Shown here piece by piece: positions 39,801 through 42,800 of a stretch of 64,000 bases of DNA. Position numbers: made by a program. The DNA comes from Minisyncoccota bacterium (GTDB lineage: Bacteria > Patescibacteriota > Minisyncoccia > UBA6257 > Brennerbacteraceae): positions 7,817-71,816 of the forward strand of contig DAOTOJ010000002.1 of the NCBI GenBank assembly GCA_035451285.1, in the 5' to 3' direction. Within the stretch, counting starts at the first letter, position 1; every line of letters begins with the position of its first letter.

Positions 39801-42800
39801 AGTTATTTCTCCTTTATCGAAATAAGAGCTATTTTTGGTAATTTTGCCGCTTTCTAAACCAGCTGCCAAGGTAAAAGGTTTGAACACCGAACCTGGTTCA
39901 TATCTCGAAGAAACTGCGCTATTTAAAAAAATAGAAATATCTTTTACTTTGTTATATTCGTTATTATTAAAATCAGGGTAATTTGCTAAAGCCAGAATCT
40001 TACCAGTTTTGGGATCCATCACAATTACGTTTCCAGATTTAGCAGACCATTTTTGAACTTCTAATTTTAAATCCTTTTCAACTTCTTGTTGAATTACTGG
40101 ATCAATAGTCAAAATCAAATCAGCCCCATCAGCTACATAAAAATTATTAATTGCACCCCAAACGCCATTTTGAAGTATTCGGGCTAAAGTTGTTTCCTTG
40201 GGGTCGTCACCCCTTAATAAAGAATCATAATAAGCTTCTAAACCATACTTCCCAATGCATCTATTTGTTGCATTATCAAAACTGCAAAAACCTATTGTTT
40301 GATTAGCTAAATAATTGGGATAGCTTCTAAAATCTTTTTCTTCCAAAATTAAACTAGGAATTTCCTGCTTTAACTCCTGAGACAATCCACTTTCTACGTT
40401 TTGTTTTAATAATTCATAAGGATCATTGGGTTTAGAAATTTTAGCCAAAATTGATTCCTTGGAAATTTCTAATTTTTCAGATAAAACTTCAACTATTTCT
40501 TCTCTTTCTTCTTCTTTAATTTGAGAAGGGTCAATTGCGATATTATATTTTTTCTTGTTTATTGCTGCTGGCACTAAATTGCCGTTTTTATCTTGAAAAA
40601 ATATCTCTCCTCTTTTAGGTATTAAATCTATTCCCCCTACTTGTTGCGCTAAAGCCTTTTCTTTCCAAACAGCATAATTGGTAATTTGCAAAGAAAAGGC
40701 TTTAGCGCTGGAAATCGCTATTAATAATATAAAACAACCAAAAATAATATACGCTCTTGTTGAAAAAGAACGAAATTCAAAGATTTTAATTCTTCTTTTA
40801 AATATTTTTTTTCTCACTCTATTCAATTATCTTAAATTATCTCTATTTAAACCAATAACCGGTTTTTCAAAGCTTAGATAATTAATATTAGCTGCTTGAG
40901 AAAGATTAAGCTCTTGAGCATAATCGTTCAAAATTTTTAAAGACAAAACCTCGCTTTGCTTGATTAATAATTCCTCATTAATCTTTTTATTTTCCTCGAT
41001 TTGTTTAGAAATGGTTCTAATTTGAGAAGAAAAATTTATAGAAGCAGCTCCTAAAAAGATAAGCGATAAAATAGAAAAAGTAAAGAGGATAACTGAAAAA
41101 TAGAAAAATATAGAACTGCGATTTTTAAAAAAATTCTTCGAAAATTTACTGCGATGTTTGGAAGCAGACAAAAAATCACTGTTAAATTTTAATTGCCTTT
41201 GATAAGGAGTGATTATTGTCATATTGTTATTTTATTTTTTTAATTGCCCTTAATTTAGCTGATCGCGAACTAGGATTTGAATTTATTTCTTCTAAAGTTG
41301 GGACTATTGGTTTTTTGGTTAAAATTTGAGCGGTTTTTTCTGATTCTTTTTGCTTAAAAAATTTTTTAACAATTCTGTCTTCTAATGAGTGGTAACTTAA
41401 AACTATAATTCTGCCATTAGCTTCAATAAGCTCAAATGCTCCATTTAAACCTTTTGTTAAATTATTCAGTTCGTCATTTACATAGATTCTGATCGCTTGG
41501 AAAGTTTTAGTAGCGGGATGAATCTTTAAATGCCTTTTGGGATAAATTTCTTTTATAAGTTGTGAAAGTTCTAAACTGCTTTCAATTTTTTTAATTTTTC
41601 TTTTTTCAACAATTTTTTTAGCAATTATCGAGGCATATCGTTCCTGACCGTAATTTCTTAAAATATCTCTTATTTTTTCAAATGGCTCATAATTTATAAA
41701 ATCATAAGCAGTGTATTGAATATCATCGCTATAAGTCATTAGTAGTGGTTCGTCTCTATTGAATGAAAATCCTCGATTAGAATTTTCAAGGTTCATTTTC
41801 GACATCCCCAAATCAAACAATATTCCGCTAATTTCTTTAAAATTTGTTTTCTTTACAATTTCTAATAAATCTTTATAATTTCCCTGCTTAATTATTGCTC
41901 TATTATCTTTTACCTCTTTAGCAAATTTTTCTTTCAAAATTTTTATAGCATAACCATCAAGATCAATCATTAAAACTTTTCCTTTGGGATAATTTCTTTT
42001 TAAAATTTCTTCAGAATGCCCCCCACTTCCACTAGTAGCATCAACATAATTTTTATTTTTTTCAACATTTAAATATTTTATTGTTTCTTGTAAAAGAACT
42101 GGAATATGCATTTTTTAAATTCCCAACTGCGATAATTTTTCAGCAATTTCCTCGGAACTATTTTCTGTTTTATTTTTATAATCTTGCCAAATATTTTTAT
42201 CCCAGATTTCTAACCTATTAAATAAACCATTAATCACTAATTGTTTTTTTAACGAAGCATAGTTTCTTAAATAATCAGGAATTAAAATTCTTCCTTGATT
42301 ATCGAGATCTTCATCAACTGCCCCTGAAAACATTAACCTAGCAAAAGCTCTAGAATTAGCTTGAGCCAAAGGAAGCTCGGCTAATTTTTCAGCTAATTTA
42401 TTCCATTCGCTTTTTGAAAAAATAAACAGGCATTTATCTATTCCCCTGGTAACAATCAAACCGTCTTCAAAATCTTTTCTAAATTTAGCAGGAATAGCTA
42501 CTCTACCTTTTTGATCTAAATTATGTTGGAATTCTCCTATAAACATATTTTTATTAAAAATTTCTTTATCCACAGTTTAAACCACTTATCCACATATTTA
42601 TCCACAATTCACCACTTTTGATTAATATTTTAATCTCAATTCCCCACTTGTCAATATCAAAATTGTGGATAACTTTTTATCCCAAAAAATAAAGAAACTC
42701 TTAAAAATTAAGCCCCGTGTTTTATTTCAATAACATCACCATCATTAATCAAATAGTCTTTACCTTCACTTCTTATTAATCCCTTAGCTTTGGCATTTTG

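Follow-up and report, generated by a model that had tools for sequence, protein, structure and literature searches.

A repeat array resembling a cluster of DnaA boxes is probably the MraZ operator of a division operon in Patescibacteria

The cluster of 9-mers preceding mraZ on the DNA analyzed here is, judging from sequence comparisons, probably the autoregulatory MraZ operator of the mra/dcw promoter. The DNA is a 64-kb stretch (hereafter the window) of a Paceibacterota (Patescibacteria) contig with a GC content of 29%, and the majority of its genes reside on the minus strand. In our best reading the repeat unit of the operator happens to equal the complement of a DnaA box, and the "four perfect DnaA boxes" of the original prediction would represent one allelic state of this element.

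An exact search of the window for TTATCCACA disclosed three copies in front of mraZ on the plus strand, at successive distances of 20 and 12 bp, and a fourth one on the minus strand (boxes 1 to 3 and upstream auxiliary box, Table 1). All four copies match the strict DnaA consensus TTWTNCACA and together span 107 bp, which is in line with the prediction, whose end point of the cluster (42670) fell 2 nt short of the actual one. The window contains six exact copies altogether, while 0.37 were expected, and none of 100 dinucleotide shuffles reached this number, so the supposition that the clustering is unlikely to be due to chance was well founded. Sequences with one mismatch showed a mild excess (27 versus 15.8 expected). 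One of the two remaining copies, at position 63705, is situated within the coding ORF of a 684-aa gene. The other one, at position 45001, belongs to a hairpin of the L10 leader RNA (RF00557). The terminal hairpin of this leader (ctgtgg-ataac-ccacag), which is followed by a T run, holds the fifth exact TGTGGATAA of the window, and this copy is explained by RNA structure and not as a protein site. A generic repeat was excluded, as the motif occurs only six times in the window and as the repeat unit was encountered outside of the array twelve times in 379 kb of related loci, never as an array.

Table 1. Elements of the array, genes of the operon and other features of the window
Feature	Coordinates	Strand	Remarks
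Upstream auxiliary box	42664..42672	-	gene sense TTATCCACA, opposite in orientation to the other copies; ~-53..-45 (predicted TSS); 57 nt before box 0
-35 hexamer TTGACA	42649..42654	-	TTGAC kept at the same place in relatives
GTGG box in promoter spacer (AAGTGGGG)	42644..42647	-	32 nt (~3 helical turns) upstream of box 0
-10 hexamer TAAAAT	42627..42632	-	16 nt after TTGACA; predicted TSS ~42619-42620
Box 0 AAGTGGTGAA	42608..42617	-	TG(G) signature at 42614; 3 mismatches to the DnaA box
Box 1 TGTGGATAA	42598..42606	-	perfect DnaA-box complement; TGG signature at 42604
Box 2 TGTGGATAA	42586..42594	-	TGT signature at 42594
Extra box AAGTGGT	42581..42587	-	overlaps the tail of box 2; TGG at 42584; occupies the fourth 10-bp slot
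Box 3 TGTGGATAA	42566..42574	-	TGT signature at 42574
ychF	42708-43718	-	separated from mraZ by a 161-nt spacer
mraZ	42118..42546	-	143 aa, ATG at 42546; Pfam PF02381 at 1.4e-45; first gene of the operon
rsmH	41227-42111	-	PF01795
ftsL-like small ORF	40827-41222	-	downstream of rsmH
PBP/ftsI	39045-40826	-	PF00905
Sigma-70 region 4 + HARE-HTH protein	37720-38805	-	361 aa; directly after the PBP gene; unusual pairing beside division genes
16S rRNA gene	36037-37588	-	complete; 44% GC island; 23S and 5S matches absent from the whole window; rRNA genes apparently unlinked
L10 leader (RF00557)	44977-45096	-	63 bits; upstream of rplJ
ORF, probably spurious	45120-45605	+	overlaps two opposite-strand tRNA genes (45123-45194 and 45250-45320)
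RNase P RNA match	50578-50936	-	barely above the Rfam threshold (101.6 versus 100 bits)
Partial ORF	62518-63768	-	C-terminal part only of the 684-aa gene, which extends beyond the end of the window

The genes of the minus strand follow each other in the order ychF, mraZ, rsmH, small ORF and PBP, and the array thus lies at the head of an operon that begins with mraZ, as is the case for MraZ operators. The deduced MraZ shares 100% identity with an MraZ protein of Ca. Paceibacterota. Since most of the homologues listed comprise 143 aa, we regard the ATG codon (MFIGEF...) as the true start of mraZ and not the GTG codon at position 42573, which was taken as the start by gene callers. This GTG falls inside of box 3, an overlap already pointed out in the prediction, as was the location of the inverted copy just upstream of the promoter TTGACA-16-TAAAAT. 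These hexamers are the sole sigma-70-like match within positions 42300-43000, and the start site of transcription was predicted from them. The idea that TGTGGATAA itself provides an extended -10 promoter was dropped, because only one copy yielded a passable hexamer.

If the predicted start site is right, the three direct copies, which read TGTGGATAA in the sense of the gene, are located at ~+14, +26 and +46 of the transcript and hence in the 5′-UTR of mraZ. Box 0 begins ~5 nt past this site. The distances between the 9-mers look irregular but resolve into the 10-bp phasing of the MraZ-DNA cryo-EM structure, when the TG(G/T) signatures are considered: TGG, TGG, TGT, TGG and TGT follow each other in an exact 10-bp series from box 0 to box 3 (Table 1), and the five phased boxes cover ~+5 to +54 of the predicted transcript.

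The upstream regions of mraZ were compared with those of 80 other Patescibacteria loci (one genome per species, MraZ 61-71% identical), a comparison that the prediction had proposed. Sixty-seven of the 80 loci share the array, which is found after the -10 region and before mraZ, with spacings of 10, 12 and 19-20 nt. The consensus of the relatives reads AAGTGGKGAA, followed by tTGTGGATAA after 10 nt, TGKGGATAA after a further 12 nt and TGKGSAKAA after another 19-20 nt, the last distance being that between box 2 and box 3. The conserved unit of the Patescibacteria is TG(G/T)GGATAA, and its form with T at position 3 is exactly complementary to a DnaA box. The forms of the boxes were counted over 68 arrays, i.e., the 67 relatives and the window. 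Box 1 is TGTGGATAA in 41 of them (window included); among the relatives alone, an alignment anchored on boxes 0 and 2 only gave TGTGGATAA in 38/65 and T at position 3 in 64/65 cases. Box 2 occurs mainly as TGGGGATAA (35 arrays) or TGTGGATAA (16), and box 3 as TGGGGATAA (23), TGTGGATAA (10), TGTGCATAA (6) or TGTGCAGAA (4). All three boxes are perfect TGTGGATAA in six of the 68 arrays, the window and five other loci. At positions 3 and 5 of box 3 the relatives carry GG (35), TG (12) or TC (12), never GC. The form TGTGCAKAA at box 3 was seen in at least two clades.

Conservation extends beyond the DnaA-like 9-mers. A GTGG motif just upstream of the -10 region, 21 nt before box 0, is present in 48 of 62 relatives. 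TG(G/T) was found in 62/62 relatives at each of the first three slots of the 10-bp series, two of which were set by the search pattern while the third was free; the fourth slot is occupied in 3/62 and the fifth in 60/62 relatives. Relatives whose MraZ is 92-97% identical to that of the window have retained all four 9-mers, although the surrounding spacer has diverged, and a relative with a 70% identical MraZ has retained the inverted copy and boxes 1 and 2. As the array has been kept together with mraZ while its flanks diverged, we consider it an old, selected element tied to mraZ, of which the window displays one state.

For MraZ boxes, direct GTG(G/T) repeats with 6-nt spacers have been reported, three in most bacteria and four in Mycoplasma, with the TSS inside box 1; each MraZ subunit contacts TG(T/G) via the residues K13, R15 and R86 (PMC12957436). 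B. subtilis possesses three GTGG[A/T]G repeats (bioRxiv 10.1101/2022.02.09.479790), and the MraZ box of the Mollicutes is AAAGTG[T/G] (PMC8475190). Several properties of the array argue for an MraZ operator. It immediately follows a strong promoter and precedes mraZ, with which the operon begins; it recurs with the same spacing in the relatives mentioned above, even where the flanks of the four 9-mers have diverged; and among its most conserved parts are some that do not represent DnaA boxes, namely box 0 (AAGTGGKGAA) and the GTGG motif by the -10 region. The exact 10-bp phasing of TG(G/T) fits the published GTG(G/T) definition (PMC12957436). Moreover, the E. coli operator is similar: 15 of 20 positions agree between the Patescibacteria consensus AAGTGGGGAATTGTGGATAA and the mraZ operator of E. 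coli, CAGTGGGAAATTGTGGGGCA (cAGTGGGAAATTGTGGGGCAAAGTGGGAATAAG), and box 3 of the E. coli operator also ends with AATAA. In an alignment of the MraZ of the window with 19 homologues, D11, K13, R15, D82 and R86 did not vary; of these, K13, R15 and R86 are the DNA-contact residues, which are held by D11 and D82. The prevailing form of boxes 2 and 3, TGGGGATAA, does not fit position 7 of the strict DnaA consensus, and the rarity of the unit elsewhere in the related loci, where it is never arrayed, points in the same direction. The interpretation of the repeats as MraZ operator repeats, one of two explanations offered in the prediction, is therefore strongly backed by the comparative data and the published box definition.

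The variation at position 3 also suits the MraZ operator. In box 1 the register of MraZ would read T3-G4-G5, which would explain why T is kept there, while in boxes 2 and 3 it would read T1-G2-K3, for which both G and T are allowed. A point against the MraZ operator is that base contacts in the structure of the M. genitalium MraZ are confined to TG(T/G); the structure alone does not explain why the GGATAA after this signature is so strongly conserved. Regarding the mechanism, each MraZ subunit would recognize one TG(T/G) signature through the major groove, and the subunits would bind cooperatively to boxes 10 bp apart, from the promoter spacer to ~+54. Occupancy by MraZ would block the RNA polymerase or promoter escape, and mraZ-rsmH-ftsL-pbp would in this way be repressed by the product of the operon's own first gene. 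Binding and repression by MraZ at this site are what we infer from these comparisons.

Three further observations speak against the MraZ operator or at least do not follow from it. First, the auxiliary upstream copy keeps its offset but not its orientation, contrary to what one would expect of a protein that reads direct repeats. Within 130 nt upstream of box 0, TGKGGATAA occurs in six direct and four inverted copies in 67 loci, while 0.26 were expected; the auxiliary copies of the relatives cluster at -56..-61, and one locus (L063) has an inverted TTATCCCCA variant there. Second, box 3 bears C at position 5 (TGTGC) in 12 of 60 scored arrays, which breaks GTGG but is tolerated by the DnaA consensus, and this C is present only when position 3 is T. 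Third, boxes 1 and 2 follow each other head-to-tail at 12 bp, as do the DnaA-box pairs beside dnaA genes.

These observations also favor the most serious alternative, according to which the operator has a dual use: DnaA would bind to boxes 1 to 3 and to the upstream copy as well, competing or cooperating with MraZ, and the status of replication initiation would feed into the division operon. We consider this possible but rather unlikely. It is suggested by the four perfect consensus boxes of the window and by the perfect DnaA-box complement that box 1 forms in more than half of the scored relatives. The strict DnaA consensus is matched by box 1 in 43, box 2 in 17 and box 3 in 19 of the 68 arrays (window counted). 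Arrays with three perfect boxes are more frequent than the ~1.4 expected if the boxes vary independently, an excess that may reflect shared ancestry. Against a role of DnaA, conservation tracks the code of MraZ and not that of DnaA: position 3, which corresponds to position 7 of the DnaA box, is mostly occupied by G in boxes 2 and 3, position 5, the "N" of the DnaA consensus, is nearly fixed in boxes 1 and 2, and the best-conserved neighbors, box 0 and the GTGG motif by the -10 region, are not DnaA boxes.

The weight of the G/T variation was reduced by a control. A scan of metagenomes for TGTGGATAA-N3-TGKGGATAA gave 80 readable loci, nine of which lie beside dnaA and two of which precede mraZ, both with box 0. 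The remaining loci are mostly bare tandem pairs without box 0, on contigs with 26-64% GC. Since the 9+3 head-to-tail pair is common beside dnaA in metagenomes and since TTATCCCCA variants exist inside one dnaA-type cluster (L151), the variation between G and T counts less against DnaA than it would otherwise do. By the same token the two-box pattern alone was weakened as a mark of MraZ, as the scan mostly yielded tandem boxes of the dnaA or oriC type. One metagenomic locus (L108, Ga0209166_10018998, 59% GC) harbors at positions 336-804 five tandem units of ~115 bp, each composed of TGTGGATAA-N3-TGKGGATAA and further boxes; with 14-24 DnaA-like boxes per 500 nt this array is unusually dense.

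Precedents for DnaA at such a place exist. Passages of PMC2533591 and PMC8203912 citing Goranov 2005 report that DnaA binds to the promoter of yllB (mraZ)/ftsL in B. subtilis in vivo, as detected by ChIP, and a passage of PMC4446571 citing Eraso 2014 reports binding of the E. coli MraZ to a site overlapping the DnaA box of mioC; on reading the E. coli mioC promoter we saw no obvious MraZ-type triple repeat. The prediction had considered a link between DnaA and the division operon undescribed for this lineage, which agrees with the literature as far as searched, but for bacteria elsewhere this does not apply in view of the passages on B. subtilis yllB/ftsL.

A function of the conserved repeats at the RNA level, as an element of the mraZ 5′-UTR, was also considered, but we deem it very improbable. 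Given the predicted TSS, the transcript would include boxes 0 to 3, and an inverted CCACTT, which 18 relatives (L021, L028, L029, L033, L042, L052, L062, L080 and others) possess ~34 nt past box 0 in the interval from box 2 to box 3, could pair with the AAGTGG of box 0. However, the 5′-UTR of the window folds worse than shuffled sequences (z = +1.71), RNAalifold did not predict any pairs on 54 aligned arrays, and an extension of the pairing past the 6-nt core by a base matching the fifth of box 0 was found in 8/18 relatives against 4.7 expected, which is unconvincing. The window itself has a direct AAGTGG instead at the position of the CCACTT.

Least credible of all, and hardly worth maintaining, is the assumption that the cluster is part of or adjoins the chromosomal origin of replication or titrates DnaA, for although perfect boxes are packed about as densely as in origins, 67 other genomes have the array linked to mraZ, the skew has one sign throughout, dnaA was not found and an unwinding element was not seen. 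The GC-skew analysis suggested for locating oriC gave negative values in all 32 2-kb bins of the window and the same sign in the 6.5 kb past its right end (L102), so that a sign change did not occur anywhere in this DNA. Neither the Pfam scan of 30 ORFs of the window, which did not detect a DnaA domain, nor tblastn with a B. subtilis DnaA query, which gave no match in the window or the related loci examined, nor the extension of the contig beyond the window revealed dnaA. The neighbors of the array are ychF and mraZ, with no dnaA or dnaN beside it, and inspection of the window by eye did not disclose a DnaA-trio-like or AT-rich unwinding element after the boxes. The suggestion that the cluster is origin-proximal is not supported.

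Returning to the MraZ operator, the array gives the Patescibacteria, whose transcription control is, to our knowledge, almost uncharacterized, a concrete regulatory element of cell division that extends across the phylum. Our literature search did not uncover a description of this operator in Patescibacteria or a remark that it coincides with the DnaA box. The MraZ core (T-GTGG-ATAA) is part of every consensus DnaA box; therefore, scans for DnaA boxes flag MraZ operators, and scans for MraZ boxes flag DnaA boxes. Whether DnaA and MraZ both read the unit TGTGGATAA, MraZ on one register and DnaA as a tandem pair, is doubtful; in this event the array would be a true dual-specificity site in Patescibacteria, at which free DnaA and MraZ compete for the division promoter and couple replication initiation to septation in minimal cells. 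Binding of DnaA would make the array a simple device for the coupling of replication and division in very small genomes.

Among known systems, the yllB/ftsL operon of B. subtilis and ftsZ of C. crescentus are precedents for DnaA at the promoter of a division gene, according to passages of PMC2533591 and PMC8203912. These cases rest on ChIP or in vitro binding, whereas the boxes of the window are known from their identity to the consensus. The DnaA-box pairs at dnaA promoters and oriC (TTATCCACA, head-to-tail, 3-nt spacer) have the same 9-mer and the same 12-bp spacing as boxes 1 and 2, and identical pairs are situated immediately upstream of dnaA in five metagenomic loci (L106, L128, L130, L154 and L170). 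Unlike these pairs, the array of the window is not accompanied by dnaA, a skew switch or an unwinding element, the GTGG boxes that flank it do not qualify as DnaA boxes, and its relatives mostly carry TGGGGATAA at boxes 2 and 3. The element belongs to a well-known kind, the MraZ operators. Like the MraZ boxes of E. coli, B. subtilis and Mycoplasma, the array lies between promoter and mraZ, consists of direct GTG(G/T) or TGGG cores with a 10-bp period, and is accompanied by a cognate MraZ with K13, R15 and R86; the TSS predicted for the window would likewise lie at the first box. It differs from the known MraZ operators in comprising five or six boxes instead of three or four, in conserving nearly the whole unit TG(G/T)GGATAA instead of only 4 nt, and in the offset of its 9-mers, which makes them appear at distances of 12 and 20 bp. 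Further peculiarities are the auxiliary box upstream of the -35 region, which occurs in either orientation among the relatives, and the repeat unit itself, whose variant with T at position 3 is exactly complementary to the DnaA box.
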